Part shown: one piece after another, positions 6,851-51,900 of the stretch
How the letters are laid out: each line of letters starts with the position of its first letter
Position numbering within the stretch: the stretch's first letter is position 1
Assembly (NCBI GenBank): GCA_973895155.1
Contig: OZ316897.1
Location: forward strand, 21,170,260 to 21,234,259
From: Marsupella aquatica
Taxonomy: Eukaryota; Plantae; Marchantiophyta
Direction: 5' to 3'
DNA: 64,000 bases
Position numbers and translations under genes: made by a program
The notes under the pieces: generated by a model
What the model was told of the DNA's origin: nothing
What the model saw: the letters and a program-made list of their open reading frames with translations, nothing else
Databases searched by the model: none

Positions 6851-8612
6851 TCACAAGTAAATTTTGGGTGGCAGCCGAGTGGGCATGCTGGAGGCTGGGG
6901 TTTTACAAGTTGGGCATTGCCTGTTCTTCAAGTTCCACAGAGTTTTGGTGCATTTGTAACAGATATTAGCATGATTGCAGTCCTTCCAGTAGGCCCGCTG
7001 CTGGTCTGGATCTTCTCCAAACTCGTTCGTGCAAATGATACACTCTGCCACCTGCACCCAACAACGCCAGATGAAGACCCATAACCAAGGTCTCATTTGT
7101 CTGTTTCATAACTCTTGTTTGCTTCCTTTCAGTCATCCTAACCAAGCTGATCTTTCCCGTCGATCTCTAATCTAGGCAATCCGTGGTTGTATCCTAGAGA
7201 ACAAAATATGTTCTTATCTGAGGGTGGGGATATCTGGACATAAGATATTCGTGAAGATTTCCTGCGTAAGTAATATGCATGCACGAAGTAATTTTTCATG
7301 TAATTTCCATACGCGTATTCTCTCAATATGCAGTTCAGGTACGTTTTTTTCAGTTGCGTTTGAAATTTACATATGTTAAGTAAACTTGATTGAAATGCGA
7401 GCTTATTCTAAGGTGCATACCAAAATGAGTGCGAGAGACTACTATGATCAAAACTGGAAGTCGAGAATTTTGAGTAGTACCATTACTTACCTCGTTCCTC
7501 TTAAGAATTTGGATCTCCTCTCTTTGTTCCCTGATTTGTTCCTGCGCCAGAGAGTGCTGTTTTGAAGCCTTCTGCAATTCCACTTTTTTGCATTTGATTT
7601 CTGCATTTCGTTGCTCCAGCTGGGTAAGCAGATTTTTGCACATTTCTTCGAGTTTCTTCCCTTCAGACACTCCTGTCCTAAGCTTAGCGGGTTGCGCCTC
7701 CCACCTTTGCCTCTCCAAGATTGCGCCTCCCGCCTCTGGCTCTCCAAGTTGGTCAAGCAGATCTCTGCCCTCTTCTTCAAGTCGTTTCTGTTCAGACTGT
7801 GCCTCCCACCTCTGCCTCTCCAAGATGCGATGCAGGGGCTGCTTATGTGAAACGAAATCCGCTACATCCGTCTTTTTGTGTTTCCCTTTCTGCACATCGC
7901 TTTTGCAGTGCGTCAACTTCCCAGACATGCCATCCGAAGGTCTCTCCATCTTCCTGGTGCGGGCCTGATGGTTTGAAACCTTTTGTCTATCTCCCAGTCT
8001 GGGTTTGAGATGTAAAGCTTGCTCTTCTACATGCAATTGCTCCAGCAGATCGCTGAATCCGTCTGCCTTTTTCTCTTCGGCAGCTGCTGAAGCCAGCCTG
8101 ATAGATTCCAGCCGCGTAACTTCGGCCTTCCACTGCTGTGACTCCACAGTGATCTTCCTCAGTTGCTGTTCCCGGGCATAAGCTTCATCTTGCAGCCTCT
8201 TGCACATGAGTTTCCACTCTTTCAGCCTCTTGCATGTGAGTTTCCAGTCATCTCTCTCGAGTTTCCACTTGTCTCTCTCCGTATTCCACTTATCCCTCTC
8301 AGCGTTGTGTAGCTTCAGTAGCTCTTGCATTGTCTCTCTATACGAATCTGTGGGACCCAACTGCCTGTTGTACTCCAGGCTCGTCTCAGCCTTCAATCGA
8401 TTCATCTGCTCTACTCGCCATTCATTTACTCGACTGGATGCTTGGGTCTCCGTCTCCCAATCACACAACTTCGTAATGGCCTTCAAAGTGAGCTCTAAAT
8501 CTTCCTCCCTTTGGCCGTCTCTAATCACTTCTGGTAGAGAGTGAGAGCCGTGAGGATTGTAATAGTCAGGCCTGCTCTCATTGCATTCCTCTTGAGAGAA
8601 GTAAGCTAACAT
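6851..8612 (-). CDS. Coiled-coil + C-terminal RING-HC (C3HC4) protein, family copy 1; putative E3 ligase
   Basis: Exon 8612-7491 (ATG; Trp/Glu/Lys-rich heptads; donor GAG|GTAAGT), intron 7490-7052, exon 7051-6851 (acceptor GGGTGCAG|) encoding C-x2-C...C-x-H-x3-C-x2-C...C-x2-C, ending PPKIYL*. Confidence 0.85.
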
Positions 8613-11319
8613 TTGTGGTGGGATTCTCCGTCCTCACGGTTTGAGATGTCCACAATTTCTATGATCAGTCAGTTTGCACATGTCAAGCACCGGAGTAGTC
8701 CAATACGTCTGGCAGTTTATTGTCCGGTTCTGTCGAATCGTTTAGTGCCATGGGCTCGGCTTCTTCTTCCAACTCCAGCGATGGGGCCGGGTGCTTGTCG
8801 AATCCTCTCCTCATGGACAGCTGAGGAGTACATAACGATTGTATGGTGAGCAGGCATGGCGGGAATCTAAGTGAACAGTCGAATTCTCCTAGGACGAGAT
8901 TCAACGTTGTCAAGCGCAAACTCAGGTCCCAATATGAATCAACTAGAGATTCCCTACAGGATTCATATCCGCGTGGTGGGATATGTGATCGTCGTCAATT
9001 CGCTAACATCCAAGAAAGACAGAAGCAGTGACACATCCCGAAGGTGTAGCGGTTCGTTGAAAACTTAGATGAAGCTGGAACGACCGTTCTCATGACTTCC
9101 ACCCACTCACAAAAGTCATTGCTATCAGGGTCTCCTTCACAACTAGTTCTAAATTACGGTCCAATTGACATCCGAAGAAACACGCAACACAGCCGCGAAT
9201 GAGAAAGGAAATTTCGTACCGAAGCTTTCACAGTACGCTTTCAACCTGATCACATCCGCGCTCACTCCGTTGTTCAATTATTGAAGTCTCCGATCGTTCG
9301 ATGAACACAAACGAGCCCTTGACAAAATTCAGCAACTAATTGGGCAGTTGGGCAGATGATCTTCCACTTCGTGCAGCAAAAGCAGCTGGATGTCTTCAAC
9401 TCTAATCGAGTCAGGGACGCATGAAGATCGCTTTGACCCGAGCTGAAACAATTCATGTATTTCTTCCACATCAGATAGCCTGTTGACAATTGCCGAGCCA
9501 CTATTGACCCAAGCCTCACTAATCTCCAATAAGTCAGGATACAATGATCGACCAAACTCCAAATTCTTGAGGTAAATAATTGGACGAGCTTTCAGCTTTG
9601 GATGCGGAGCCATCATTCTGTTCTTCACCTTATCTTCTCGTGCAGATGATCGTAAGAAAAGAACAATACCGTACAAATTAAACGAGGAAGCTTCAGAGTA
9701 GAATGGCACCGAAGCCTCAAGCACTTCGAATGACGGTGACAGCCACATCAAAGTTCAGATTCTCAAAGCAAACCGAAACTAAAAGGTTCAAGATCACCAC
9801 CCCGCATCTAACTCTCACATCACGATCACAAGCGTACTAGACGCAAAGAAGAAAAGCAAGGGGAATTGCAAGGATCGAAAGGCACAAATAGTGTGAGCTT
9901 CGAATCCTCGATTAAATTCACGTCAGCACCTTAGTCAGCCTTGGAAGTGCCGTCAGTTCCGCAGTCTCAGCCATCATCGATCTGAACTCGTAATCGTTTC
10001 TCCGTCGCACTGGTGATTCTCACGAGGAAGGGAAGCAGGGAGCATGAGCACAAGACGGATGAGGCCGAGGTGGGATTTGGGATGGCGTTGCTGCTGCTGT
10101 CCTTCCCGTTGTAAGTCACGTTTATTAGAGATTCTGATCAGAGTCAAAGGGAAGTCAGCTGAGCGGCGAAACACGATGCTAGAGGTTCTATGCTTCAGAG
10201 TTTATCGGTGGGTCCAAGAGATTTAGATTTAGATTTGGAAGTTGTTGAAAATCGGTCGGTCCAAGAGTGAAGACTTGAAGTTGTTGAAAATGTGGACCAT
10301 TGATTTATTTTATCCCAGAAAGCACCACTGTCCTTCCACTGTCGCTGCGGCAAAACTCACAATAATGAAACCTCATTAATTTGTCAACAAAGCTGCATGG
10401 ATGGATCATAACAAGTTGTCAAGTTGGATAACTTGGATGGACAGTCTTGAACCACTTTTCGTTTTAGTGTTTAGGTTTCTTAAGGAAAAGAGTGAAAAAA
10501 ACTTTACTCCACACACAAAAAGTAAACGACAGCTGTCTACTACAGCAGGTAGATTCTTCAATAACTTATTTAAAATTCAAATAGTGTTGCCCAAGTGAAT
10601 CTTCAACGGACCTCCATGTTGTCTACGAAGGCCACATGGACTGGCAAAGCTTGGATGGACCGCTCATGACATCTAAGTTGACTCAGATAACATTGTTTAC
10701 ACTGTCGGCTGAAATTCATTGTTTACACTGTCGGCTGAAATATGATGTAACATGTCTCCTTATCGTTTGCAGCCTGTTTCAGCTACATTACCGAACGAGT
10801 TTCCTCAGTACCGCAAATGTTCTTTAAAAACTCTCAAAACTTTGGGGGGGGGGGCGGGGGTGGGACCATATGTTGCAAACCTACACCATTCTTGTGAAAT
10901 TTGTGATGACTAAACAATTTCCTTAAGTGGCTGGCTCAAATCCGTGATACGAGAGCATTGGAGTGGCACAATGTTTTTAATCACACCTTCCATCTCATTG
11001 ATCCAATTTAATTGCTTGCTTTCAATTGGGCTGAGATTGTAGCTTCAAGACAAGAAGCTCCATTCTTCTCCAAGCAACATTGCTCAGCCAATCAGACATT
11101 ATTCTGAACAGAGGGCATTTTCAAAAAATGTGACTTGATGTTTGGACTACTTTCTTCACTAGTTGTCAAAGTTGTCAACTGCAATACACGACCGGTTCAT
11201 TTTAGGCAGTCCAGGGGGATGGGCACAGACAAAGTTTTGGTCCACTTGCCCTTCAGATTTGTGAGCTCAATGTTCCTTATTCTTTTTGTAAATAAATGGT
11301 CATAAATTAGGTCTCATAA

Positions 11320-12414: not shown

Positions 12415-12545
12415 ATAACATTTTGGGTGGAAAGCCAAGTGGGCATTCTGGGGGCTGGGGTCTTACAAATTGGGTACTGCCTATTCTTTAAGCTCCACAA
12501 AGTTTTTGTGTATTCGTAATAGATATAATCATGATTGCAGTCTAT
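12415..12545 (-). pseudogene. Degenerate extra copy of the 3' part of the RING exon
   Basis: 'attttgggtggaaagccaagtgggcattctgggggctgggg...catgattgcagtct' aligns with 6861-6983 and 12571-12695, with indels and substitutions. Confidence 0.75.
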
Positions 12546-12561
12546 TTAATTTCTGGATCAC

Positions 12562-15500
12562 TCAGAAGTAAATTTTGGGTGGAAGGGGAGTGGGCATGCT
12601 GGAGGCAGGGGTTCTACAAGAGGGGCACTGTCTATGTTTTGAGCTCCACAACGTTTTGGTGCACTTGTAACAGATATTAGCATGATTGCAGTCTTTCCAG
12701 TAGGCCCGCTGCTGATCCAGATGTTGTCCGAACTCATTCATGCAAATGATACACTCTTCCACCTGCACCCAATAAAGCCAGATGGAGACCCCATAACAAG
12801 GTCTCATTTGTCTGTTTCATAACTAGATATAGTTTGCTTCCTTTCAGTCATCCTAACCAAGATGACCTTCCCTGTTGGTTGGTAATCAAGGCAAATAATC
12901 CATGATTATATCCTAGATAACAAATGTGCCTTCACTGACGGTGGGGATGTCTGGACCCAAGAGATTCATGAAGATTTGCTTCATAAGAAATTTGCATATG
13001 TTAAGTAAATGTTGAGAGGGAGACACCACTATGATCAAATCTGGAAGACGAGAATTTTGTATAGGTGCACCACTTACCTCATCCCTCTTGAGCTTTTGGA
13101 TCTCCTCTCTTTGTTCCCTGATTTGTTTGGAAGCCTTCTGCAATTCCACGTTTTTGAGTTTGATTTCTGCATTTCGTTGCTCCAGTTGGTTAAGCAGATC
13201 TTTGCACAATTCTTCTAGTTCCTCCCCTTCAGACACTCCTGTCCTAAGCTTAGCAGATTGCTCCTCCCACCTCTGCCTCTCCATGATGAGATGCAGGGGA
13301 TGCCTATGGGAAACGAAATCCGCTACATCCGTCTTTTTGTGTTTCCCATTCCACATATCGCTTTCGCTTTGCGTCAACTTCCTAAACATGCCATCCGAAG
13401 GTCTCTCCATCTTTCCGGTGGGGGCCTGATGGCTCGAAGCCTTTTGTCTATCTTCTATTCTTCGTTTGAGATCCAAAGCTTGCAGTTCTACATGCAATTC
13501 CTCACTCAGAATAGCTTGAGTGGCTGCAATTTCTGATTTTACGCCTAAAGCCAGAAACTCTTGAAGTACTTGCTCAGATTGTAGCTCTGAATTACTCAGG
13601 ACAGTAGCAGCATGCGGGAATAACTCCTCCCTAAATGATCGTGCATCACTTGATATGGCCTTTGGAAATACTCCGTTGATGTCCCCTCTCTCCAAATGCA
13701 CATAAATGTCAACAATCTGCGACAACAGCTCTCTTGGATTGAACTCGTATTTCTCAGGATTATTAAGTCTAAGCATTCTCCGTTGAGGCCCAACCAATTG
13801 CATCAGGAAGTAGTTAAGCATTGAAGCAATTCTTTCCACCATCTCGGGAAGTAGGAAGGGAGCCGTTATTTCAGCAGAAGTGTAGCGCAACATTTTGACA
13901 TCCTCTTTTGCCAAAGTCATATCAATTCGTACAACATTCTCCTGTTGATGGAAAAATCGAGTTCGTTCCTGGGGAGTCGGACGCTCCCACTCGGCAGTAT
14001 TTTCCATCTCTGCCTCCATCTCTTTAAGTTCTGACATCTTATTCAAACTCTCTTCCAGAAGAGATGTACTGTCGTTGATCAGGAGATTGAGGAACTTCAA
14101 ATACGCTCCCCTTTCTTCAGTCACAGCAATCTGCTTCCAACAAGTACGGTGAGAGGGTACATCCCATAAGTATTCCAGAAGCTCTCCGATATTGTACCGA
14201 ATATTGAATTTGTCATAGAACTGTGTTTTAGAACCGGTGAACTCAATCTCTACATAAAGCTTGAGAAGGTTTGGCACCAGGTACTGCAATGCCAGCTGAT
14301 GCCCTTCGAGCAGGGAAGCCATCGAATTTCTTAACGCTGCTGAATCGCTCTTCGATGGCATCCAGGCACTTAAGACTTCCACCATTTTGGCCCGTAGGTA
14401 AGGATTTTTGACATGGAGAGGGCTTTCCATGAACATTACAATGAAACTCATGAATTCATCCAGAACCATTCCATCTAATGCCCTCGGAACTCGAGACGCA
14501 AAAAGGAGAAGTTCCAATGAGTCCTCGACAAAATGTTCAGGCATTGAAGCAAATTCCATAGGGCACGGAATAGGAAGAGGCATCTTGAAGCCCCCGACGA
14601 GGCTAACGAGCCAAACAATCATCAACCTGTAGAAGCTCAACGCGTTCTGAAGAAGAGCAGTATCCTTCGACAGCTGTGCCTCGTAGCAGTACCAGTCTTG
14701 GGAAAGACGTTCAACTAAAGCCATTCCCTGCATTGATTCCAAATTAGGAGGTGCTCTAACATCACGTAGCCATCTAAGGGTATTCAAAGCCTTTTTCTGC
14801 CGTGAAAGCTCCTGTGTGATAGACTTGAAGTTTGAAATGGCCTTCACCAGTCCCAGATTCAATACTCTCGCAGTCAGGAAGAAACACTCGCAGATAAAAC
14901 TGTAATTTCTTTGCTCCGGCCCCGAGCGGACTGGAACCAGTAAATGGTTCAAGCCATTGCTGGACGACGAAGTTGTGGCTTCGTGTGAATCCATACGTCT
15001 CATTTCTTCTTGCTCCTTCTGCTGCCGGAAACCTTCATTGCGAGATAGGTTGCTTTTATCGACCCATTCAGCGACTTCTTCCGAAGTAGCATGCAATCCA
15101 GTCAAAGAGCTGAAATCGATACGCCCTTTGTGCAGTACATACCCGGCATCTATTTTATCTCTTTTAGAAGAAGAGATGTCAAAGAAAGGTTTGCAGAGAC
15201 TCAGCATAACAGCACTCAAACACACGAACATACCATTGCTGGCATTCGTGAATGGGTTTGCCTGTAGGACTTCGCTTTTAACATTCTTCTGAATCAGGTC
15301 AGCAAAATATTGAAGAACGGATTCTCTGTTGTCCGCAGATTTCAGAAGCTTCAGCAGCAACTCGTGCAATCCTTCGTACAGCTGATGCATAACTGTCCTG
15401 ATCGTTGCAAAAGAAGAAATTATGTCCGAAGGCACCCGATAGCTGATATCGGCGAAGCACCGCTGTCCGACATTTGGTTCACCGTTGCCGAAAACGGGAT

Positions 15501-16302
15501 GGTCGGAAATAGTACTGATGTAGAAGAAGGGCCCTAAAATGCTGCCCACTTCCAACACTCTGCCATTCACGTGCTCGCCCTTGGGGTGCCATAAAGGATG
15601 GTTGACCAGCGCCGTGGCCAGAGGAGGATGCGACACCAGCATCACTAGAGCTCTCAACGGCCCTTGGAATGGACCTAGCGGAGAAAGTTTCGTGACACTT
15701 CGCTGCAAATCTCGAAAGACCGGATTGAAAATGTCACCTAGTTTCTCTGCTTCGAAGAAATTGATGAAGTCGTCAAGAAATCCGGGCGGCAAAGTCGGCC
15801 TACTCGCCCCGACGCCGCTAGTGCCCGGATCGGTCCCCACTGACGGGGAGATATCCGCAAGAATGTGCCCCAACAAATCTGAATGACCGTCATTCGCAGC
15901 CTCACAACCAGGATACAGGCATACATTCCCCACATGCGAGACGCAAAGGTCCCTAACCTGGCCCAACGTGTACTGAACCTCTGCGAGAATCTGCTTGTCT
16001 TTCATGTTTTGCAACTTCCGATGTTCATCTAAAGCTCTCCAGTAGCATCCCACTAAATACACAAATGGCATCTCTCCCCCTCCCAAAAGCCTCGCCATCA
16101 ACACCCTCTCGAGCACATCCCTGTTCAGCGCCAAATTCTTCCCCTCACTCAGCAGCTCAGCGGCTAGCAATTCCAGGTACATGTACTCATGAGCTATTGT
16201 TCCTGCTCCTCCATGCTGCTGCTGCACGAGCGTCACCAGCAAAACCTTCCTCAAAATGAAATCCTCGACCTTCTCTATCCTGCTTAGCATTTCCGCCATC
16301 AC
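12562..16302 (-). CDS. UFD2: Chimeric UFD2/UBE4 core (intronless retrocopy lacking the U-box) fused to coiled-coil + RING-HC (family copy 2)
   Basis: Uninterrupted exon 16302-13078 has UFD2 motifs (EDFILRKVLLVTL, SFICECFFLTARVLNLG, NPYLRAKMVEVL, EFTGSKTQFYDKFNIRYNI, NLLINDS, NPEKYEFNPRELL). It switches at ~13499 to LHVELQALDLK..., homologous to copy 1. Donor GAG|GTAAGT at 13077; RING exon 12762-12562. Confidence 0.9.
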
Positions 16303-17549
16303 TCCACCTCTGTCTCGACAATCTCTCTCTCAATAATCCTCCCCGTAAACCGAATTCAACACCTGTCCGTGCCCACGTTTCGCCTGCCTTCCGTCCTCAT
16401 TCCGTCCTCCTTCCACCAATGCACGATGGATTACCTACAGTAGGTGCCATTCCCGTTGGCGCACTAAATATAGAACTCCTGAAATTCTGGCCTCTAATGA
16501 CAAAATATTTGGGGTCCTTGTGAATCCTTCGAATTTTTTCCCCTGTGTGAAAGATGGCCTTCCTTACATGAAACGGCAATTGAGATTGAATGTTAATGGT
16601 ATACGGTTCACAAATTGGCGATCGCTGTAACTAAGAAACAAAAAGCACAAAAAATATAAACTTCGCATGCGTTTGGCAAGGGTTGAGTTTTTTTCCTGGG
16701 AGAAAATGAGGCTTTAGATGCATTTGGTATAAGATAATTGGCTGAGAATTCGAGAAAATGACCAAGTCTTTCTTAGATCAAAAGTCAACTGATTCCATAC
16801 GAACGTGAGGCTGAATAAGAGAGCTGATGCGATCCCCCACGCCACAAGCTTTGGTCTGCTTGGCTTGCCGGCCCACCCGACCAAGAGGAGGACTCAGGTG
16901 GATTCGAAAAGAAGAGAAACAAAGGCAGCACTCGGTTTCACTCCACTAACGAGGGGCGGGTTTGGCACATGACCCAATTGCCTTTGCATTCAGGATTCTA
17001 TTCGGACAGAGCAAGTACAAATGGGATGGAACTGTTCAAAAAGGATGATTTTTTTTGTTGGTTTTGAGTGCAACCTTTGCTGATAAGTAAAATGCATTCA
17101 AAAAGGATTTTGATTCAGTCCAATAGAAGATCAGAGTTTTTGAAGCTGTGAAACGGAGTCGCATCACCATAGACAGGACTCATCATAACATGCACTTAGA
17201 TAGGGGACTTTGTCAGGACTTACAACAACTTCTACAAATTGTAGCTGAATCAGCCTTTCTCGTGAATTGAAATCAATCTAAATATCTCAGTTGTAAATGT
17301 CGTAGCATCCATCATCCAAAGACTGAAGCAGGTAACACCCTTGTTCCACAAATATTTTGCATTCAATGTAGAGCCCATAAGTTCAAATCCCAACCTTAGT
17401 AAGGAATGCTTCTTAATAAAGTCCACTGCTCGCCAATAAGGGCGAGGGACGGAGCTTACTTCATCGCTAGGGATCCTGCCCGTCTGGATTGCTGTCCAAG
17501 GAAGATCCCTTAACATGTCTGCCTTTTTCTTCTCTTGGGTAGCTTCTTC

Positions 17550-17722
17550 TTCATTTGCACCCTCTTGCACATGAGTTTCCACTCTTTCAGCCTCTTGCAG
17601 GTGAGTTTACAGCTCTCCCTCTGGAGTTTCCACTTGTCTCCCTCCAAATTCCACTTCTGCCTCTCAGCATTGTGTAACTTCGGTAGCTCTTGCCTTGTTT
17701 CTTTATACGAATCTGTGGGAGC
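17550..17722 (-). pseudogene. Orphan 5' coiled-coil fragment of the RING-family gene interrupted by the UFD2 insertion
   Basis: PTDSYKETRQELPKLHNAERQKW...KRLKEWKLMCKRVQ closely matches copy 1 (8355-8190). Confidence 0.75.
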
Positions 17723-17834
17723 TACAATTGCCTGTTGTTTACGTGGAGAGCTGTCTTTTGGTTCTCTGCAAGGAGTAAAGCATTTCCGGGCCTCCGTCCC
17801 ACGTTTCGTAAAGAAACATAACAATAACAACTAA

Positions 17835-18030
17835 TGGTTACAGATGGTCCATCCAAGTTATGCAAGTTGTTGTGATCGATCCATCCACGCTGCTCTTTAT
17901 ACTACTGTGAAATTTACAAGGTAACGCAACGACTGTGGCAGAACAGTGGCGCTTTCTGAGACAAATCAATAACGGGATCAATGATACCCATTTTCAACAA
18001 CTTCAAGTCTTCAGTGTTGGACCGACCGAT
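17835..18030 (-). repeat. Inverted duplicate of 10250-10455 (upstream region of RING copy 1)
   Basis: 'cattttcaacaacttcaagtcttcagtgttggaccgaccgat' (17989-18030) is the reverse complement of 10251-10292 with 2 mismatches. Similarity extends to the 'ccatccaagttat' segment. Confidence 0.8.
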
Positions 18031-20064
18031 AAACTGTGAACCATTGAACCTGCATCGTTGTTTTCAGCCGAGCTAACCTGCCCTGTGACTCAGATCATAT
18101 TCCCTAATTACTACAGGACGGACGACAGAAGCCCGACTATCCCCACCGTTCTCATCTTTTCGTGCTCGTGTTCCCTACTTCCCTTCCTAGAGAAAATCAC
18201 CAGTGTGACCGAGAAACGATTACACTTGCAGGTCGATGATGAGACACTGCGAAACTTACGGCACTTCTTGGGCTGAAGAAGGCGCTGGCTTCAATTCAGT
18301 CGAGGATTCTAAGCTCACACGATTTTGACCCTTGTCACTTTTGATCCTTTTATTCCTCAGTTCTTCTTCTTTGGCGTCTAGTACGCGTGTGCTCATGGTG
18401 TAATGGTTCCGAATCTTGAAGCTCTTAGATCCGATTTCTTTTTAAGAAATTGCGGCAGGTATGAGCACCCGTACGAGCATTTATATGCCCTTTGCATGTC
18501 GACGCGCGTGTCTCGACGCGCATGGGAGGGAATGTCCAGAGCTGCAGCAAGGCGCGGTGTGTGGCTGCGTCGCCGGGGTGGTTTCATGTTGGCAGAAAAG
18601 GCAAAACATTGGCGCTCACTAAAATGACGTGGTCCTGAAACAAATTTTGGAGGCGCCCCAGAACTCATTTAGGGATTTGGAGACCGGATGCGAGCCAGAA
18701 AACACTGCTGGTCGCATGTGAGCTGCCCTGAAGAATGCGGCCCTCAACCTGACTCATGCTTGAGTGACGGAGAGTTACTTGCCTGAACCCTCTCCTGAGC
18801 CACGGCTGGCAGCAAAAAATTTGGAGTTCCCAAGGGCCCAAGGGCAAGGGCTGGAAATTTTCCTGCCCTCGAGGTCCCGACCTCAAAATTTATAATCAAA
18901 CAAGAGCACGGACGTGACACATGTTGTTCGACTCTGCCTTCTTTGTATTTGCCAGTCACCCTGCAATTCATGGAACCAAGTGCTTGAAGCAAGAATCGCA
19001 GCACTCAAGCTTTTCCCCTGTCCAAAGAACTGAGTTCAATTTACAAGTTCAATTTGCCACAATTCAGGCACTCATCGCAAACGATTCGAAGCTGAAGTTG
19101 TGGGAAATGACGATACTCATGCTCTGTACACACTGCAATTCATAAAAACACTTGAAGCTCAGTACTGAAGCTGCGCCCATCTCCAGACAGCACTAACTAC
19201 GCAAGAACAAGAGCACACATTGTGGCGATCTTGATTATGCGAGCTCAGCGCACTCCAGGCTCAATTCCGCTGTATACCAGAAGCAGAACGACGGCACCGA
19301 GCCCTGGCAGTACCTTCTATCCAGCATTTTCTTCTCGCAACATTTCTCTCAATCAACGCGGCTTTGTGTTGATGTGCTTTGTGCCTATTTCCTTCGGAAG
19401 ATTGTTGCGTTGATTGTGCATTTCTCTCACCACACAAATGCATTTCATTCACTTCCATTCCATGCAGCTGAATTCCTTTCAAGTGTGGCAGCCCTTTGCA
19501 ATACGTCAAGCTTTTTAGGCAGTGACAACTTGAGGGGCTCAGGAAGTCACCACCGAGCAGCTCTGGAGCTCTACCTGGCTTTCCAGGTTTCCCAGTTCTC
19601 TCAGTAGGATGATTGTTGGTCTTCTAGGCTACCTTGTGGTTTCTTTGGTTTGTTCCCTTTTGGTTGTGGGGGGCCTCTTGGCGGGATGGGCCTTTTGGTC
19701 TTCCTTTAGGTCTTCCATTTGGTCTTCCTTTTGGTCTTCTCAGGGGTTTTTCCCTCCCTTCAGGAGAAAGTGGCCTTTTGGTCTTCTTAGGGGTTTCTTT
19801 CCCTCTCTTCAGGAGAAAGAGAACCCAAATTTAGAAATGAGGGAAAAACAAAGTACAACGAAAGCATTGTTTTGACTTTGGGACCCTGAGTCTCCCTGTT
19901 AGGCGTTTTTGTTCTTTTGCACTAATATGAGCAGCAGTGCAAGTGAGATGGAAGTTACTGGTACAAGAGCACATGTGCATTGGTGCAAGAACGAAGGTTT
20001 ATGGCACTTTGCAGGTACACAAAATGCAGGGCCAATAATGTCCCTGTAAAGTGTGCCCTTTATA

Positions 20065-24405: not shown

Positions 24406-25680
24406 CTAGACCCAAATCTCATGCTCCTCCACCCCGCAGAATTCATTTGAGCAAGTAAACCTAGACCCTGACGGGTCATATTTCATATCGCGATTACAGA
24501 AATTGAGAGGCTTTCTATTCCAGAACTTTGTTGTGAGGTCCCTACACCTCAAGACTTCCAAAACAAATCCCCGATGATTGTCTCTGTAGGGTCTTGTGTA
24601 CTGATATCCAATTAATGTCTTTGCAAGGTCGTTGATCGCCTCCTCCGTCAATTCCTCCATTGGTGGTAATTTTTGCACTTCATTTTTGATATCCCAAGGA
24701 ATTTCGTCCGCTGTGACATCCAAGACTGTATGGAAAACGGAATGAACCCATACCATACTACCCCACCGCTCCGTCAACAATGCATAAATGGAAGCCTGTT
24801 GATCTCTGTCCGATAAAACATTTATCATAGACCACTTTGGATGATTGATAAAAAGATAGTGCTGAAGATTGAAGGCATGATACAATTTCCTGAGCAGAGG
24901 CCACAGTATTTCTGGAAAGAATGTATCATCCGTGGAGTGATGCGAAAATGAGGAAGGAAACAACCCACAATTCTTTGGATTTGCAAACGCCTTCATTGGA
25001 GTGTCATCAAGAAGGAGTGTATTAGTTTCGTCATATAATCCACCATAACGTTTCCAAACAACCCTCAAATCCTTCAAAAGAATATTTGCCTTCCCATCGG
25101 TAATGTCAGGCCTCTGGATTCCAGTATCGAATGTATCTTCTTGAGTGAGAATAAACTTGAATTGCTCTCTCTCTTCTTGATTGAAGATCAAATGAATCAT
25201 TTCATCCGTCTTGGGTTTCCTTGCACAAGTCCAAATGGCAACATCAAATAATGAAAAAGCTGCGATTAAGAACTCGTGAAGATGGGGTCGCTCAACATAC
25301 ATAAAGTTAAACCCTCCACGTCTCCCCCAGTGGACACCATTGACACTTGTCGCACTACGGCGCGGTCCGGAACTTGGCGTTTTGACAGAATCCCAGCACA
25401 TTTTGTTGAGGTCAAGAATCAATAGCTTCCGTCTGATCGGACCGTGAAGTGGAGGCAAGGGTCCTGCAAAGTACGAACACCAACGTTAGAATTGTGGGAG
25501 ATAAAACAAAGGAATGCTCGAGACGATCTCGAGCATCACAAGTGAATGAACAACAGTCAACATCATACCTGTTATTTGTGGAAGGTCAGTAGTTGAAGAA
25601 ATCTCAGGACATCTTCGGAGATTATTGTCGACGCACTCCACAATTTGTAAGGGCCCGCCTATTTCTGTGAAGGTAGACAT
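24406..25680 (-). CDS. FCP1/NIF-family HAD phosphatase-like protein (transposon cargo)
   Basis: Exon 25680-25569 (ATG; donor G|GTATG) and exon 25463-24406 (acceptor CTTTGCAG|) join in frame. Motifs KLLILDLNK, ERPHLHEFL, FDVAIWT, LLKDLRVVW, NTLLLDDTPMKAFANP. Confidence 0.8.
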
Positions 25681-25734
25681 AATAATTTAGACGGCTGAAT
25701 TTCCGGACAGTTCAAACTAACTTGGGTTTCAACC

Positions 25735-28700
25735 TCACGTGCTGAAAGACCCAAATTCATCTAGAAGGTTATCTCCTAGTTGGTTTTGGATGTCCAAATT
25801 TATCCCTCCGGGAAGGGTCTCAACAAGAGCTGGCTCAGACCAAACTGACACTAATTTGAACTTATCCATCCTATACTTTCTAGATCGAATAATCTTCTCA
25901 GACTGCTCTATAGAGATGTGTTGACCTTTTGACGGTCCATCAGTCCAAACATAATGAGTAGCACTTGCTTTGAGTGATTTGTAACCAGTTCTACCGATTT
26001 CAGTCCCCGGTTTCCTAACAAAAGGGAGAATTACGGGGCTTCCAGTAGAAGAATCTGTGAAAACAAGCTTATTCTCTGAAGCGCAAAACATTTGGTCCAA
26101 GGGAGAGGACGATGCACCTGCCTCGTCCTGAGGGGGAGTATGGAAGCCACTAGCTTTCTTAGTAGAGAAAATCTCATCCAGTTGAGGAGGGCTTGGAATT
26201 GGTTGGCTAACTGCATCCTGCAAGGTGGATTCCCAGCCAACATCCAAGGTTGAAGACTGTTGTTCACGTTGTGCATCCCCAAGGTCACCCGATGAAGGAA
26301 CACTTGGAACATCGAGATCATCTCGAGCATCATTTCCAAATTCAGGGAGTATTTCACCCTCTTCTTCCATGTAGCTTGTAATTTTCGGGCCCTCCATTTT
26401 GCGATGCTCTAAATTCTCCGCAAATACTTCCTCATAAACACTGGCTTCCACTGGAGCTATGTCTGTGGCCGCCTCTTCTATAAGAACGAGGGGACCAGCA
26501 GTAATTTCCTCAGATGGTAACGGCTCCTTGGGTGGCACATATAAAACTTGCTTGTTGTCATGAAGGAGCTGAGCAAAGGCTTCAGTGAATTCCATCTCTT
26601 GAGCTGTGTCCGAATACACAAAACAATCCCGACCAAGAATGACACAAGCTTTCAATGTCTGTCCTCCAGAGAAGAAATCCAACACTGTATGACCTGGGCA
26701 CGAGAAATAATCAACAAGACGCTTTGTCATTCGCAAAGGCTTTGCTCTCGGATTTACAAAGCCACCACGCCGACCGACCATCTCATAAGATGGGGCCATC
26801 TTCTCCAAAACTTTGACATCAATAGTGGATTCATCGAGCTTCTCTTTCCCATTTGATTGGTCTTTGTTGTTCCCAGTAGGGGCCTTCAAAGGCAAGACTG
26901 TGAAGTCTTTGTCCCACTTCTCACTGTAGTTCCAGAACGCATAAAAGTCATCAAAGAAAATTTGGGACCAGTCTGGTTCCTCTTCACAACAAATTCCCCC
27001 AAAGATGATTGAGTATCGAGCTCCAATGAGAAAATCTCCCTCCTCCTTGGGCACCTGATCACGGTAGTAGCTCCCGTACTCCAGCTTCGTGTGCACTTTC
27101 TTCTCACGACGAATCTTTTCAAAGGCACTCTGAATCTGGCCTATCAATGGGCCTTGACGGACAAAAAAGATTACTAAGACCTCCGTCGAGTTCGCCATCT
27201 GCAAGCAATACTCCAGCAAGACAAAAATTTCGGCATCTGTCCACTACCATTGTCGAATACGACCAAAATCGACAATGGAGAGTGGACACGTCCTTTGCAC
27301 CGAGTCAACAACCTCAGGCTTCATTGTCCTCATCAAATTATCGCTAAAAAATGTGCGATAAGGAGTATCCTCCATTGAAGGCAATCCGCCAAATACCTTG
27401 CAATATATCTGCTCAAGCCTCACAATGAGACTTTGCGGAAATGGGTCTTTTGGCCTATTTCTTTTTAGGAGGTTGGAAATCCAAACCTCTCCAGCAAGTT
27501 GTCTAAGTTTGGGCAACTCACCACGATCCATAAATGCAGGCAACAATTGAGTTAGCTCAAACCAAGTGAGTGAATTGGTAAACCGATCCGGATACTTCAA
27601 AACGAAGTACTCCATAATTTTTACCCTCAGCTTGGTCATGACTTTGAAAGTATGAGCCATATCACTCATTGATTGAATATCAGATTTGTTGGCTTGGTCT
27701 TTCTTCAATAAAACCTTCTGTTGTTGAACGGCAGTAAAAACTTTCAGAATGTCGTCATTACTCAGGTCTCCTTCAAAGCATCTAAACAATGCCGGCGTAA
27801 TCATTTTTGTTGTCCGGGCTTTCCCGTTTATTTTTGAACCTAACTCCCCTAGACCATCCGGAAGAAGTCCCTTGACCCAATCGATGCACATTTGTCTCCA
27901 AGTTCGGAAGAGGTTCTCATCCGAAAACAACAACCAAAAAATATTCCTCAGATCAGATTTTCCAGTCGTTATTTTGGCAAGGGCCATAAAATCCTGGTCC
28001 AAACAGTACAAAACAAATCTGAGGCTCGAGACGATCTCGAGGTAGAATTAAGAAACTATGGTAAAATTTATGGGAGAATACATGAAGATAAATCAAATAC
28101 AGAAACTTGACCTCGAGGCTCGAGACAATCTCGAGCTCGAAGTGGATTTGAGTTCAAATATACCTGGAACTTTTGATGATCCGTTAGTCTATTGGACCCA
28201 ATCACGGGTCTCTCCGGACGGCCACACTCGTCAAACTGTCGACGCGCATGGACCATAGTATCAAGAAAACAGGACTCATACTCCATTGTCTTATTAACAG
28301 CATTTGCCCTTTGTGAGTGTTGAGCAAGTATTGTCCTTGGAGTTCTGTCCGAAAGAATTCGTGACTTCCAATATTGCAGACTCTTCGCGACCTCCTTCAA
28401 CTTTGCATCGCTCTTAGCCCAACCTATGATCCAAACAGCTGCTTTTGCCGAGTGTTGTCCACTGATTGCAAGGAACTGCACCTTCTTATTCTTAACACCC
28501 CACTCAAACTCCTTTCGATCCTCAGCAGTATTCTCATAATGGAGCAACTGCAAACTCTCTCTTGAATACGGAATTAAATTCGCCATAGCTGGTACCATTC
28601 CAGGGTTTCTAACCATGGATTTTGCAACCTCCATGGCATGGTCTTTATTGAACATCCTATAAACCAAAACTGCAGATGGCGAATCTATACTGGTGACAGG

Positions 28701-45093: not shown

Positions 45094-45420
45094 TTACAAG
45101 TAAATTTTGGGTGGAAGCGGAGTGGGCATGCTGGAGGCAGGGGTTTTACAGATGGGGCATTGCCTGTTCTTTGAGCTCCACAAAATTGTGATGCACTTGT
45201 AACAGATATTAGCATAATTGCAGTCCCTCCAATAGGCCCGCTGCTGACCCGGATCTTCTCCAAACTCATTCGTGCAAATAATGCACTTTGCCACCTGCAC
45301 CCTACAACTCCAGATGAGTTCAGTGTCTCGAATGTGAGTTCCAGTTCTCTCTCTCAACTTTCCACTTATCCCTCTCAGCGTCGTGTAGTGTCAATAGGTC
45401 CTGCAATATCCCTTCAGAAA
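45094..45420 (-). pseudogene. RING family copy 3: intact RING exon (45294-45094) with a deleted coiled-coil remnant
   Basis: VAKCIICTNEF...CNYANICYKC...CPIC...PPKIYL*, with the His ligand changed to Tyr. 45335-45420 reads SEGILQDLLTLHDAERDKWKVERE. Downstream 44500-44810 resembles 6520-6810. Confidence 0.8.
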
Positions 45421-46900
45421 ACCAAAGACTAATTGGCCATATGATCCTTGCCGGCTGGATATTGTGTTTGATTGCATGCTACATGTAGCCACCTCCAGAC
45501 TTTCGATTGTCAAGTATTTAGAAAATGTCACAAAATCTGTTAGGTCGACCTTACTCTTAATTCGTAGATCAAGTTGTTATTAAGAATAAAACGTGCGGAT
45601 GTGTACATTAAATTCATTTAGTAGAAGAGGACCTCATAGGAAGATGGGGATCATTGATCTCTAAGAAGAAGCAGTTGAGTTTGTTGCTGTTTGTGAAAAG
45701 ACCTCTGAAATATACTTTGACCGGTCATTGCATCTCCAGTGGTTTGTCCAGATTTCGGAGTCGCAGCGACAAATCCTGCTGAACCGACTCCTCTGCGGAA
45801 TCCAGCTCTGCCCATTTAGGAATTCCTGTCATAGTTCTTGTCTCGTCTGTAATTAATGTCCTTCTCCCCGTCTGCCCCAAAATCTGAGTAACATTTACAA
45901 AAGCAAGAAATCCCGAGAGCATACATCTTCTGTTCGTCACTCATCCTTCAGCTGTCTTCTAACATAAATCCACTTGATTGATTCCTTTTCCTATTCCTTT
46001 CCGCCTCTGTTGGTTTCTTCAATCTTGTTCGACGTCTTTTGACTTTCTTTTGTTTTGGAGTAACTGAGAAATCGGCAGGAACCTGAGGCTGCGTCTAGTT
46101 TTTACCGTTGGGACAGAAATGAACATCTTCCGGCTCACGAAAGAGTGACGGCAATATTCCCATTCAAGGAAAAGAATGGGGGCAATATACATATTCCCAT
46201 TTATAATGGTGGAGGGTGTTTTAGTGTTTTTACTCAACTCTTGGAAAGCAAGGAACGAGTCATCTCACAAAATACAAAACCTCTGTTTGATCATGACCAT
46301 GGTAGGGTTCTTGTTTGGACCGTGATTGTTCCCGTGTCGTGCTCCTTTTGGTCGATGGAAGTAGAATTCAGTTTCAATGTCCTGCACCGATTACTATTTA
46401 ATATTTTTAACCTGAGAAAGATTTGTGTGACCTGACCAGCCCGAGGTCTCTCAAGCTGTAGGGTTCTTTCACCACCGAATCCAAAACATCAATTATGTCT
46501 CGTTTCTTCAAAAGATGTCTACAAATACACACACAGTACATTGCTCATGAGACTCTACACAACTAAATCAACAGTACAGAGCAAATCCTGTGTGTTTTCT
46601 TGTTCAATGGAAGCGAGGACAACGTTGCATGTTGGTCTTGACTTTCTCAAAATTGAACTCAAATACATGGCGCTTTTGATTAGAGTGCCTTGCATTAGAT
46701 CACAACACCCAGGCTTTCTATTACACAGCAATCGCTTAAAAACATATTTGTACGCCCACCCAATGTTGTCATTTTCTACATAGCAGGTTCTGTTTTTGGG
46801 GAAGATAATAATAAGAGTGGAGCGAGTACTGATAAAACCATATTTGTACACTTGGTGACACCTGTAAACAAGGAAGCATGATATTTAGTTTACGGTTCAC

Positions 46901-48902
46901 TCAGAAGTAAATCTTGGGTGGAAGGGGAGTGGGCATGCTGGAGGCAGGGGTTCTACAAGAGGGGCATTGCCTATTCTTTGAGCTCCACAACGTTTTGGTG
47001 CACTTGTAACAGATATTAGCATGGTTGCAGTTCTTCCAATAGGCCCGCTGTTTATCCAGACCTTCTCCAAACTCAGTCATGCAAACGATGCACTCTGCCA
47101 CCTGCGCCCAGCATGCCCGATGAGGACCACATGACCAAGGACTGATTTGTCTGAATTAATTAAAGTTGACAAGTGTTTGGTTCCTTCGAAAAATCGCAAT
47201 GAAGATCTCTAATTACCTGTATGTTCACTAATGTACTTACGTTTTACAAAGGTGTGCAATCAAACAGTGTTAAATTCCAAACTCATCGTTGTGAAGACGA
47301 AAATGAATCCAGAAGGCGAGAAATTTGACAATGGAGGCCACTGCTCCAGTAATTACCTCAGTTTTCTCAAGCCTGATGATCTCCTCGCTCTGTTCCCTGA
47401 TTGTTTGATTCGCGAGAGCATTCAATTTTGAGGAGTCCTCCAATTCCACATTTCGTCGCTCCTGTTCGTCAATGAGATCTCTGCACAGTTCTTCGAGTTT
47501 TTCCCGTTCAGATTTCGCCTCTCGAGTCTGCCTCTCCAAGATGAGCTGCAGGACTTGATGCTGCGAAGCCCAATCTTCTACTTTCGGCTCACTCTGCCTC
47601 CCTTCCCCCACATCCCTTTCACTTTTCGTCAAGTGCGCACAAATTCCACTTGAAGATCTACCCAAAGTTTCTGTAAGAGCCTCGGTGCTCGAAATCATTT
47701 GATGGTCCTCTGTTCGGCGTTCGAGATCCAAAATTTGCTCTTCTACCGGGTGTTGCTCAAGCAGATCCCTACATACTTCTGCGATGTTCATACCTTCGGC
47801 TTCAGCTGATGCCAGCCTAGTAAAAACTGCCTTCCGCCGCTGTGATTCCAAAGTGAGCATCATAAGTTGCTGTTCTCGAGCACAAGCTTCATCTTTCAGC
47901 GTCTTGCTTGTGAGTTCCAAGTGATCTCTCTCCACTTTCCACTTTTCCCTCTCAGCGTTGTGTACCTTCATTAGCTCCTGCGTCGTCTCTCTAAAAGAAT
48001 CCCTTTCCACCTTCCACTGATCCCTCTCGATGTTGTGTAGTTTCAGGAGCTCCTGCAGTATCCCTTCAGATATTGCTGTCCGAAGCTTAGCACATTGTGC
48101 CTCCCACCTCTGCCTCTCCAAGATTAGATGCACGGGTTGATTGTGTAAAACGAAATAATCTACATCCGTCTTATTGTGTTTCCCTTTCTGCATGTCGCTT
48201 TCGCTTTCGCTCTGCGTCAACGTCCCAGATATGCCATCCGTGTGTCTCTCCAACTTTCCGGTGAGAGCCTCATGGTTCGAAAGCTTTACCGTATCTCCTG
48301 TTCTGCTTTGGAGATCCAAAGTTTGGTGCTCTACATGCAATTGTTGAAGTAGATCCCTACACACTTCTGCCACGTTCTTCCCTTCGGCATCTGCTGATGC
48401 GAGCCTGGTAAATTCTGCCGTCCACCGCTCTGACTCCAGAGTGAGGTTCCTGAGTTGCTGTTCCCAAGCACAAGCTTCATCCTCCAGCCTCTTGCATGCG
48501 AGTTTCCAGGTCTTGCATATGAGTTTCCAGTTATCTTTCTCGTGATTCCACTTGTCGCTCTCCGACTTCCACTTATCCCTCTCAGCGTTGTGTAATTTCA
48601 CTAGCTTCAGCAGTGTCTCTGTATCCGAATCTGTGTGCCTGAATGGCCTGTCCTCCTCTACGCTCTTCGCAGCATTCTTGAGATTTAGCTCGTCCACTCG
48701 AAATTCATTCACTAGATTGATTTCTGTGGTCATCGTTGCCAAATCATGCATTAATATCAAAATGGCGGTCAAAGCAGCTCTAAATCTTCGCTTTGTGGCT
48801 GTCCTCAATCCCTCTTGATAGAGCCTCCGAGCTCTGAGGCGTATTCTGCTCAGGCGTTCGCTCCTTGACTTTCTCGGGTGGGGACGAGAAGTTAGAATAC
48901 AT
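46901..48902 (-). CDS. Coiled-coil + RING-HC family copy 4, with N-terminal frameshift (pseudogene, or start at ATG 48751)
   Basis: The ATG equivalent to copy 1 (48902, MYSNFS...) runs into TAG at ~48780. The long frame resumes (ATG 48751) to donor GAG|GTAATT at 47357. RING exon 47101-46901. Confidence 0.75.
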
Positions 48903-51900
48903 AATGTCTATCATGTGAGCTGCACGACGAGAAAGGGCCTTTAGGATCATTCCAAAACTAACCGTCGAAGTCCCATTTGACAAGATTCAAGGTTGTCAAG
49001 TGGAAACTCAGGTTGCAACATAAGTCAATCGACTTCAGATAGGCAACATTGACGCGACCTGGTATTAATTTCGTCGGCTTTGAAATCGTACTCAATTTTC
49101 TACTGTCGACGGGTCCGAAGGTGAACCGATTCAGTGACAAGCTAGACTGGACACAACCGGTTCCTGAATTTCTCCCACACCCCAAAATAATTGCTACCAG
49201 ATCCTCCTGTCCAAATATTTCGAAAGTAACACGGTCTTATCGAAATGCTAATACCTTGGAGGTTCTTCACTACGGAAACCAATTCGACGGCACAAGTGAG
49301 AACTACTTAAACGATTTGGAAGTTGAGAGAATGATATTGAAAGATCAGTGATCCAGGTCCCAGGTGCGGATACGATGGGATGAACACAGGGTCTGAAAAT
49401 CGGACTCTTGCTCTTGATAGTTGAAATTGCTCTTGATACTTAGTTGAAAGTGGTCAAGCCATAAAGTTTAGGGTTGAATAACCAAAGAGAGACAGCTCTA
49501 GAGCACCTAGCTCCATGGGGAAGAACAGTGCTGAAGACCCAAACCAAAGCAACAACGAAAGGCTCAACATACACTCTTGATTGCCAAGCTTCACTGAGGA
49601 AGTGGAACGACACGGGGTCTGAATGAACGAGCGCCACGAGACAGGGAAGATAAGACTCTGCATGATACTGTTCAAATCTAACCTCTCGGACAGTTTATTT
49701 CACAGCACTGTCGCTGGACAACAGATAAGAGGGCAATTACAAAGTAAAAGCAAAGGAAGCGCCTTACCGAAACCATCACACCGCTCCTAATTCTAGCTCA
49801 TTCCATCCTGCTGCTCACTCTCAGTGCTGAATTTGGAAGTCTCCGGAGAGCATTCGATGAAATCGACCTGCCCATGACAAAATCAAAATGCCAATGAGTA
49901 ATTGGGGCCAGATGTCGATGGCTGATTGCATGCTACATATAAGTAGGAGAGATTAGACGGTCAACTAGTTAGAAATTGTCAGGAGAGCCACGAAATCCAC
50001 CTCACTCTCGAGTACTCGATCATCTAATTGCTATAAAGAAGAGAACTTACAGATGGGTGGAACTAACTTAGTAGAAGACGCGTCCAAAGCTTGGGCCTGA
50101 TTCTCACTCGGAGAAGCTCGGACCTGATCTTTGCATCTCCGCTAGTTGGTCCTCTCTTTTGCCCAGATGTAGGATTTTCTGCGAACAATCCAGCTGAACA
50201 GTCGACTCCATCCGACAACCGTCGCAGCTGCTCAGATTTGACTTCTTTGCACAGTTCTTCTTTGCTCTTCGCTTAAGTCCGTTGCTCCCACTTCTCATTT
50301 CCTCGATTCGCCCGTCTCTCTTTCCCAGCTTTGGCCCGAAATCTGAGTCTTTTTCACAAAGCAGAGAATTCCGAAGTCAACATATCTTCTCGTATCTCAG
50401 AAATTCGCTTGTCTTCTGTTCTTAATCCTGTCGTGCACTGTTCGGTTCTTCCATCCGGTTCCGCGTCGTTTGTTTCTATTCTGTCTGGGGAAGACTCGGG
50501 GGAAGACTGAGAAATCAAAAGGAACCTGACGAAGACTACTGTCGGATATAGAATGAAAGTTCTTCCCTCCCTCTCAGGTTCCTTTGTGGGCTAGCTGCGG
50601 CGCTGTTTTCTGTTGTATTCTGTACGCTAGCTAAGTATACTTTCTTTCGATTCTCACGCCAAAGTGATTTGCCTTCCCGGAAAGGAAAAACATTAACAAA
50701 AGGAACATTCGTCCGCGTCACGAAAGGATAGGGAAGCGAGTCACCATTACAAAATGCCAATCGAAACAGTTATACGGAGGTTCTCGCATGCAAATCGATA
50801 CATTCATACGGAAATTTGTCGACTGCAAACGGTTTCTCTGCTAGCGCAAACATTAGTTGGAAGGAAAACAACTACAAGTCCACACCATATCCAGAAACTG
50901 ATAAGAGATCAAGGTAGTGAATAATGTCTTATTTATTAAATAAGCTCGTATGGGCTGAGACGTCACCCTGCACAATGTAAAGTCTGCCTAGACGAAATCC
51001 AAAAGATGTTGCAAGATCAAAGTATCTCTCCAGTTCGAACGGCTGAGACGTCACCAAAACAGCTTTACTGTATCATTTTGTTGCTTGAACGAAATCCAAA
51101 AGCTTAGTGACATCACGCAAACGAAGATTCTTTGCCAACTCGATCAGGGGAGGTCTTGGCTGAGCGAAGACAGGGCTGCACAGTCCTCATGGCCCAGCTT
51201 AGGAAATAGGAACCTCCTGTCGTGGAAAAAAGTGTACAGTCGGACTGGACGACCAGATACATGTCTCCACGGCAAGCATGCAATTTGGTCCCCCTGTTTG
51301 GTCGTCATAGTACGTGGGACCCGGCCTAAATTTGTCTTTGGATTTTCGATCGGGCCCATCAGAGTGCCGTGGCGTGGGGATGGCCCTCGATCGCCAGCGT
51401 CTAGCACGCTTTGTTTTAGTTCTCCTTCACGTAAAAACGAACTTCGAAAAAGGCCCGGATCATCCGTGTGCGTGGCACCAAGAAATTTGATTCTCAAAGG
51501 TGAGATGATTATCTGCACATAGGCATTCGAAATAAGGAGGCACTCTAGAAGGATGAGGATGATTATTGAAATACGAGCCCTGGGCCACTGCTTTGCACTT
51601 TGCAAGAAGGGAAGGCCCATAGGGATTGGGGGAGGGGGGGCATTAGGGGCAGCAGGAAGCAAATATGTGATAGGGTCTACATTTTTCTCTTCAATGGTGA
51701 GCAAAAATAGCTAATCAAATCCAACGGCTGTTGATCTTTCCCGCCGAGAAGCTTTTTTGTATGCGGACGAAGGACAAAAAAAGACGGGATCCTTTATTAT
51801 AGTTGTAGATTGGAGACTCATTTTAGTCAGAAATTAGGACGACCAATATAAGCTCACTCTTGCCAACAACTTGCTTGCAAAGGCGCAAGAATCATGATTG

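Follow-up and report, generated by a model that had tools for sequence, protein, structure and literature searches.

Within a 64,000-nucleotide (nt) stretch of the genome of the liverwort Marsupella aquatica (GCA_973895155.1, contig OZ316897.1, positions 21,170,260-21,234,259 of the forward strand; this whole stretch is referred to as the window, and the coordinates below count from its first letter), we found a chimeric gene on the minus strand, in which a processed copy of the E4 gene UFD2 lies in frame inside a lineage-specific gene encoding a coiled coil and a RING domain. Judging from sequence features, the resulting gene of 1,140 codons has probably been kept by selection, and may encode a putative RING-type ubiquitin ligase that would use the UFD2 core as a body for binding substrates or partners. 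We read it as a chimeric retrogene, a kind of gene already known. A more specific proposal, to which we give less credence and which we put forward tentatively, is a selected neo-ligase: a UFD2 E4 body, including its surfaces for binding partners and chains, that would have been re-armed with the coiled-coil-dimerised RING of an unrelated, fast-evolving ubiquitin ligase (E3) family. Such a natural exchange of a U-box for a RING module would change the choice of ubiquitin-conjugating enzyme (E2) and the valency, keep the clients of UFD2, and have reached fixation in two or more liverwort lineages that are close relatives.

Structure of the chimeric gene and its insertion into a coiled-coil/RING family

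The minus-strand open frame extends from an ATG at 16299 to 12916, corresponding to 1,128 amino acids (aa) if left unspliced. A donor site (GAG/GTAAGT, at 13078/13077) and an acceptor site (GTGCAG/GTG, at 12763/12762) delimit a predicted intron of 315 nt (12763..13077, GTAAGT..GTGCAG), and joining 16299..13078 to 12762..12562 gives 3,423 nt, i.e., 1,140 codons and a stop, with zero internal stops. The coding sequence (CDS) consists of a UFD2-derived part (13511..16299, codons 1-929 plus 2 nt) with its own ATG, the N-terminal region and a complete Ufd2P_core, and without introns or U-box; a host-derived coiled-coil part that completes exon 1 in frame with UFD2 (13078..13510, codons 930-1074) and encodes a helical segment of ~144 residues; and a RING-HC exon (12562..12762, 66 codons plus stop) in which all eight zinc ligands are present. 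The initial annotation had described an open chimeric gene at 12562..16302, in which ~935 intronless codons of UFD2 continue without stops, from a junction at ~13499, into a coiled coil and a spliced RING exon. The open frame of 1,140 codons, the GT..AG intron, the intronless UFD2 part and its complete core all stand; the start has to be moved by one codon, from 16302 to the ATG at 16299, and the break lies at 13511/13510 (codon 929 plus 2 nt) and not at ~13499.

In Pfam searches, the Ufd2P_core (PF10408) was complete in the chimeric protein (aa 255-921, profile positions 1-626 of 628, E 1.8e-183), and no match to the U-box (PF04564) was found at E<=0.1. The closest protein among 5.8 billion clusters is a UFD2 of Calypogeia fissa (P0003; 80% identity, 1,026 aa, U-box present); in alignments with canonical UFD2 proteins, identity is 81.5% for C. 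fissa and 70.6% for Marchantia paleacea. Among the 120 matches listed, 118 relatives have the PF04564 U-box, a RING occurs in none, and none extends over the query past the UFD2 part. The likeness to P0003 runs from Met1 to ..IAAT(E/Q)A and stops 10 residues before the IPDEFLDPI motif of the U-box, in agreement with the claim of the initial annotation that the break falls just before this domain. Solved structures of yeast Ufd2 were matched with E 3e-55, the aligned yeast residues being 519-865 of 961. By analogy with the UFD2 family, this body may bind CDC48 and RAD23-type partners. We also observed that C. fissa has two U-box-bearing UFD2 genes, P0003 and P0007, the latter on a very long branch (0.41) and differing at 69 of 333 columns that are invariant in eight other plants; two genes, the second of them long-branched, suggest repeated duplication of UFD2 in this lineage.

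The RING exon matches zf-C3HC4_3 in Pfam (E 2.7e-08, 33.9 bits, cut-off 27), and its translation has all eight ligands in the pattern C-x2-C-x17-C-x-H-x3-C-x2-C-x11-C-x2-C. In addition, the first Cys is followed by Ile, the seventh by Pro and the last by Arg, and the central helix has a Trp; we take these to be the residues usually named as E2 contacts, so that this RING might take over E2 recruitment from the lost U-box. The 315-nt intron would be spliced as in the rest of the family: the acceptor GGGTGCAG/GTGG is identical in three of the four copies in the window and reads GGGCGCAG/GTGG in copy B (the core GCAG/GTGG being common to all four), the predicted exon join is also present in the family proteins P0125 and P0127, and a contig of sequencing run X6 (organism C, RNA by guess) has a family exon-1 end joined straight to the RING exon at 12762. 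AlphaFold, run on the family alignment of the coiled-coil segment, predicted a helix at residues 2-24, disorder at 25-59, and a helix at 60-143 (predicted local distance difference test score 88-98) that runs into the RING; in this model, the long helix before the RING could pair into a coiled coil.

Given this arrangement, we also considered whether the UFD2 part is expressed without the RING, by intron retention (adding 53 codons) or early polyadenylation, yielding a U-box-less core that would act as an adaptor or a competitor of the canonical E4. The unspliced frame does close 53 codons past the donor (stop at 12915-12913), and a yeast study reports a U-box-independent role of Ufd2 (PMC4582114). 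However, the donor GTAAGT is canonical, the acceptor is conserved, the RING exon of this copy retains all its ligands, and the exon's own branch carries, from pairwise counts, ~4 non-synonymous and ~5 synonymous changes. We consider such a product quite improbable, and favor a spliced transcript encoding the UFD2 body together with the RING.

The coiled coil and the RING exon belong to a family with several copies in the window, as the initial annotation had noted, all on the minus strand: the uninterrupted paralogue A (6851..8633), paralogue B (46901..48907), which has an internally duplicated coiled coil and a RING exon, the broken fragment D (45097..45552), which has stops upstream and a Tyr in place of the RING His ligand, and, immediately past the chimeric stop, a degenerate and incomplete second copy of the RING exon (12422..12543; a direct repeat at 77%, with tblastn identities of 64.9% over 37 residues and 65.7% over 35). 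Outside the window the family is small: a paralogue ORF (open reading frame) used as query gave three matches, i.e., a 444-aa RING protein of C. fissa (P0125, with PF13920; 52% identical to paralogue A), and one protein each from JGI and Logan. The coiled-coil segment of the chimera aligns to the family proteins P0125-P0127; used as a query itself, this region gave no match at E<=0.001 among shorter proteins.

Comparison with paralogue A by blastn revealed that the chimeric locus is an interrupted member of this family. Its 13254-13503 corresponds to 7793-8042 of paralogue A at 86.8%, its 13013-13287 to 7426-7721 at 81.4%, and, far upstream, its 17549-17738 to 8183-8371 at 87.4%; between the matching flanks, paralogue A has 141 nt versus ~4,046 nt at the chimeric locus. 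In the alignment to the paralogue, the insert has its 5' end at ~17497, where the upstream likeness stops at ..GGGATCTTC, and its 3' end at 13511/13510. The UFD2 copy is thus an insertion, consisting of a 3'-truncated processed copy and ~1.1 kb of filler, which interrupts a coiled-coil/RING gene in its first coding exon. The initial annotation had proposed a swap of the U-box for a RING; while the frame is indeed chimeric, lacking the U-box and having the RING, this came about not by a swap inside UFD2 but by insertion into the coiled-coil/RING gene. The N-terminal half of the family, with its KLHNAERDKW repeats, is not in the chimeric frame: it sits upstream, ~4 kb apart and frameshifted, as a decayed 5' remnant of the host gene (17497..17738, minus strand). 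This remnant has a ~95-nt deletion and a frameshift, and lacks a start, so that the chimeric frame must begin at the UFD2 ATG, at which translation would then start.

Between the remnant and the ATG are a leader (16300..16366, minus strand) with remaining likeness to the second, parental UFD2 copy described below, and the filler (16367..17496, minus strand), into which parental likeness may extend. A contig of the second copy from run X1 fits up to 16345, and beyond a 9-nt indel the following 30 letters continue to match the window, at 17/20. No Pfam match, Rfam match or terminal repeats were found in the filler, and a HMMER search of it against 1.84 billion representatives gave only 10 heterogeneous repeat proteins, which we judged spurious. 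Part of the filler (17342-17470) is alike to an X6 contig with a word depth of ~499, whose loose letters are alike to ~17470, and which may be an abundant transcript or a repeat; for the ORF in this piece, no genuine homologue was found.

Other repeats were observed around the family members. An inverted pair of ~600-690 nt with 67% identity (17804-18401 and 9817-10488) lies directly upstream of both the host remnant and paralogue A, and may be a shared repeat bounding duplicated units. In paralogue B (47273-48907, minus strand) the whole KLHNAERDKW/coiled-coil unit is duplicated internally, and paralogue A has a shorter internal repeat with ILERQRWEAQ occurring twice, from which the helical part of the family appears prone to unequal recombination.

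Junction support and origin of the UFD2 part

Six public sequencing runs contain part of the stretch. Four are DNA-type, X1 and X2 labeled as organism A and X3 and X4 as organism B, and X1 may be the source of the assembly itself. Contigs bridge the junction at 13511/13510 in all four of these runs, i.e., under two organism labels and in two studies: X1 (13318-13653) and X2 (13318-13640) with 0 differences, X4 (13318-13653) with 2, and X3 (13409-13653) with 3. Organism B differs from the window by ~1%, with zero indels within the CDS and 4 in the intron and upstream. The junction is therefore not an assembly artefact. In organism C, run X6 has no contig with the chimeric junction, and all of its matching contigs come from relatives, namely a family member without interruption (joint 13476 to 17555, with 174 letters between) and UFD2-like contigs ending at 13511. 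The contigs of the second UFD2 copy also lose their likeness at 13511, placing the breakpoint between UFD2 and host exactly at 13511/13510, where a 2-nt microhomology (AT) can be assigned to either partner.

The second UFD2 copy occurs in contigs of the same runs and is ~90% alike to the window over 15525-16243; a UFD2 relative in organism C is ~94% alike over 13511-14142. The contigs of X2, X3, and X4 place introns in the second copy in at least nine positions at which the window copy is continuous (~15406, 15262/1, 14665/4, 14656/5, 14461/0, ~14348, 14131/0, 13936/5, and 13836/5), two of the nine coming from X2, labeled as organism A like X1. Within the UFD2 part, each of the 11 distinct loose ends listed (from the DNA-type runs, reverse-complemented) is a GT or AG boundary, nine of them within 2 letters of the stated place and two after 3-8 unlike exon letters. 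Two of the introns are visible from both sides (GTGAGT..GCAG and GTAGTT..TCTCTTAG), and contigs that are continuous across intron positions are also present in the same runs (e.g., 14368-14590 in X3 and X4). As the second copy has introns where the window has none, the window copy is a processed copy. The acceptor at 14665/4 and the donor at 14656/5 could mark a 9-nt micro-exon of the intron-bearing copy, or two copies with shifted introns.

These data also bear on the alternative that the UFD2 part arose by partial duplication, at the DNA level, of a UFD2 gene that was already without introns, or that it is an artefact of the assembly. A 734-nt X1 contig of the second copy is colinear with 15525-16243, and none of the six X1 loose ends listed falls in the CDS. 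On these two grounds an intronless second copy had been considered; it was rejected on the canonical splice boundaries at the loose ends of X2, X3, and X4. The colinear 734 nt fit within a large first exon ending near 15406, the intron-bearing copy is found in X2 (the organism label of X1) as well as in X3 and X4, and the junction is bridged in every one of the four DNA-type runs. We regard duplication or artefact as extremely improbable, and retain the processed copy. The initial annotation had claimed a retro origin, stated that plant UFD2 genes have many introns and end in a U-box, and named an artefactual junction and an intronless parent as ways in which it could be wrong. The second copy, with canonical introns at no fewer than nine places, bears out the retro origin and an intron-containing parent, the bridging contigs dispose of the artefact, and the 118 U-box-bearing relatives among the 120 listed agree with the description of plant UFD2, as does sorghum UFD2, for which an excerpt of the published study gives more than six introns (PMC9520534). 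The supplement of the tomato U-box paper has no row for UFD2.

The copy is unusual for a retrocopy in that it is cut at the 3' end, lacks poly(A), and adjoins unexplained filler. At the 3' side no poly(A) was found, and the copy stops within the CDS at 13511, passing directly into host sequence. Both flanks retain a version of the GATCTG of the paralogue (..GATCTTC before and ATTCTG.. after the insert), which is too short and too diverged to be called a target-site duplication. Of the 102 ORFs of >=90 aa in the window, 64 were scanned for domains, and none of these 64 matched a reverse transcriptase or any other domain of retroelements. The copy may have come from mRNA, and its complementary DNA may have been joined to the host by end-joining capture or by template switching.

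Probable selection on the chimeric frame

A truncated processed UFD2 pseudogene could also have been dead on arrival, having disrupted one member of a redundant coiled-coil/RING cluster, in which case the long frame would be a relic without a functional protein. Evidence for selection on the chimera is moderate and indirect, and much of it speaks against such a relic. All five deletions relative to P0003 and Marchantia are in frame and no stop has arisen; under simulated random substitution, the probability that the UFD2 frame stays open is 0.034 at 3% and 0.008 at 5%, so that neutral evolution to the observed divergence would probably not have left the frame open. Residue changes number ~94 specific to the window versus 31 specific to P0003, and are depleted from the most conserved part of the core, with 5 of the 94 in aa 550-699 versus ~15 if evenly spread.

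Between organisms A and B, 40 of 105 rows of differences were examined, 24 of which are in exon 1. Of the 24 listed, 11 are synonymous and 13 non-synonymous, giving a ratio of non-synonymous to synonymous substitution rates (dN/dS) of ~0.33, and the synonymous excess has a binomial P of 0.008 (0.07 if 30% of changes are counted as synonymous); this excess, together with the zero CDS indels, would not be expected of a relic. The RING exon is strongly constrained, with intact splice sites and dN/dS of 0.12 and 0.19 in comparison with the RING exons of paralogues A and B respectively, in contrast to fragment D, the RING of which has decayed with loss of the His ligand.

Several observations weigh against selection or leave less of it to be explained by the fusion. 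Protein evolution in the UFD2 part is 3-4 times faster than in the canonical copy, with a tree branch of 0.17 versus 0.041+0.012, and 89 versus 29 unique changes when Marchantia serves as the outgroup; among 256 columns that do not vary in 40 other plants, the chimera differs at 14, one of them just past the junction, and P0003 at 5. The coiled-coil part has a dN/dS of ~0.7, and the locus sits among broken family fragments. The A-B count comes from a listed subset, in which five clustered changes may reflect one event or conversion. As for the related species to which the initial annotation had pointed, the junction does recur in organism B at ~1% divergence, but the architecture is in none of the 120 database relatives listed, those of C. 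fissa included, and its distribution is therefore narrow. Lastly, the argument from frame maintenance assumes a direct transfer from the parent to the host gene, and the dating of the fusion is likewise assumed; if the fusion was preceded by a full-length paralogue, some of the constraint would be older than the fusion.

The accelerated protein evolution and the changes at invariant columns, the decayed 5' half of the host gene, the broken family pieces in the neighborhood, and the lack of poly(A) and of a clear target-site duplication would all suit a pseudogene. Set against the in-frame deletions, the spared core and the constrained RING exon, we find this explanation rather unlikely, and prefer a chimeric gene kept by selection.

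The five-change cluster (14035-14066) comprises non-synonymous A-B differences within 11 codons (745-755), at which organism B has the canonical UFD2 residues. In organism B, the parent may have taken part in a gene conversion here; alternatively, mutations may have clustered in organism A.

Comparison with known systems and other features of the window

The chimera is colinear from Met1 with canonical UFD2/E4 proteins (yeast Ufd2, and plant UFD2, also named MUSE3/PUB1) over the N-terminal region and the whole Ufd2P_core. It differs from them in having, instead of a U-box, the ~144-residue helical segment and a zinc-binding RING-HC, in its lack of introns, and in its 3-4 times faster evolution. 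With the coiled-coil family that carries a C-terminal RING (P0125, and paralogues A and B), it shares the RING exon, the place of the intron, and the C-terminal half (..LHVE.. onward), whereas UFD2 contributes 929 residues where the family has its N-terminal ~228. E3s of the coiled-coil RING type, e.g., BRE1 and TRIM proteins, likewise have a long helix directly before or next to the RING; no significant sequence relation to them was found, as the search with P0125 returned nothing, and generic RING matches were weak (RNF38, MDM2, BRE1A, and TRIM32, E 0.03-0.09).

Chimeric retrogenes include jingwei in Drosophila, the chimeric retrogenes of rice, and TRIM5-CypA (TRIMCyp) in primates. Similarly to these, the processed UFD2 copy landed in or near another gene and recruits its exons into one frame, and as in TRIMCyp the retrocopy is joined to a RING E3 gene. 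Here, however, the retrocopy is truncated at the 3' rather than the 5' end, lacks poly(A), and gives the start codon and the N-terminal body, with the host giving the RING, whereas in TRIMCyp the host supplies an N-terminal RING and the retrocopy the C-terminus. U-box and RING are structural cousins that both dock E2 enzymes, and to our knowledge a natural replacement of one by the other on a single large scaffold is hardly documented; a full-text literature search, judged on titles and abstracts, gave no case among the papers listed. If the chimera is expressed, the same E4 core could be compared within one genome with a U-box (in the parent) and with a coiled-coil RING (in the chimera), and the locus would be a clear bryophyte example of gene birth by in-frame insertion of a retrocopy into an existing gene, the disrupted half of the host still being visible. 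If it is not expressed, the copy would be an ordinary processed pseudogene that is in frame by chance.

Elsewhere in the window, a run of long intron-free ORFs (359, 502, 267, and 498 aa) is present on the minus strand at 24409-29564. These include a NIF-like phosphatase (PF03031, E 1.3e-16) and a weak match to N6/N4 DNA methylases (PF01555, 28.0 bits, cut-off 26.7), the remaining two ORFs having no Pfam match, and the region resembles an insert of mobile or virus-like kind, not a set of ordinary plant genes. On the plus strand, an 805-aa intron-free ORF (35136-37550) contains DUF7869 (E 3.6e-44), and is flanked by ORFs without Pfam matches.

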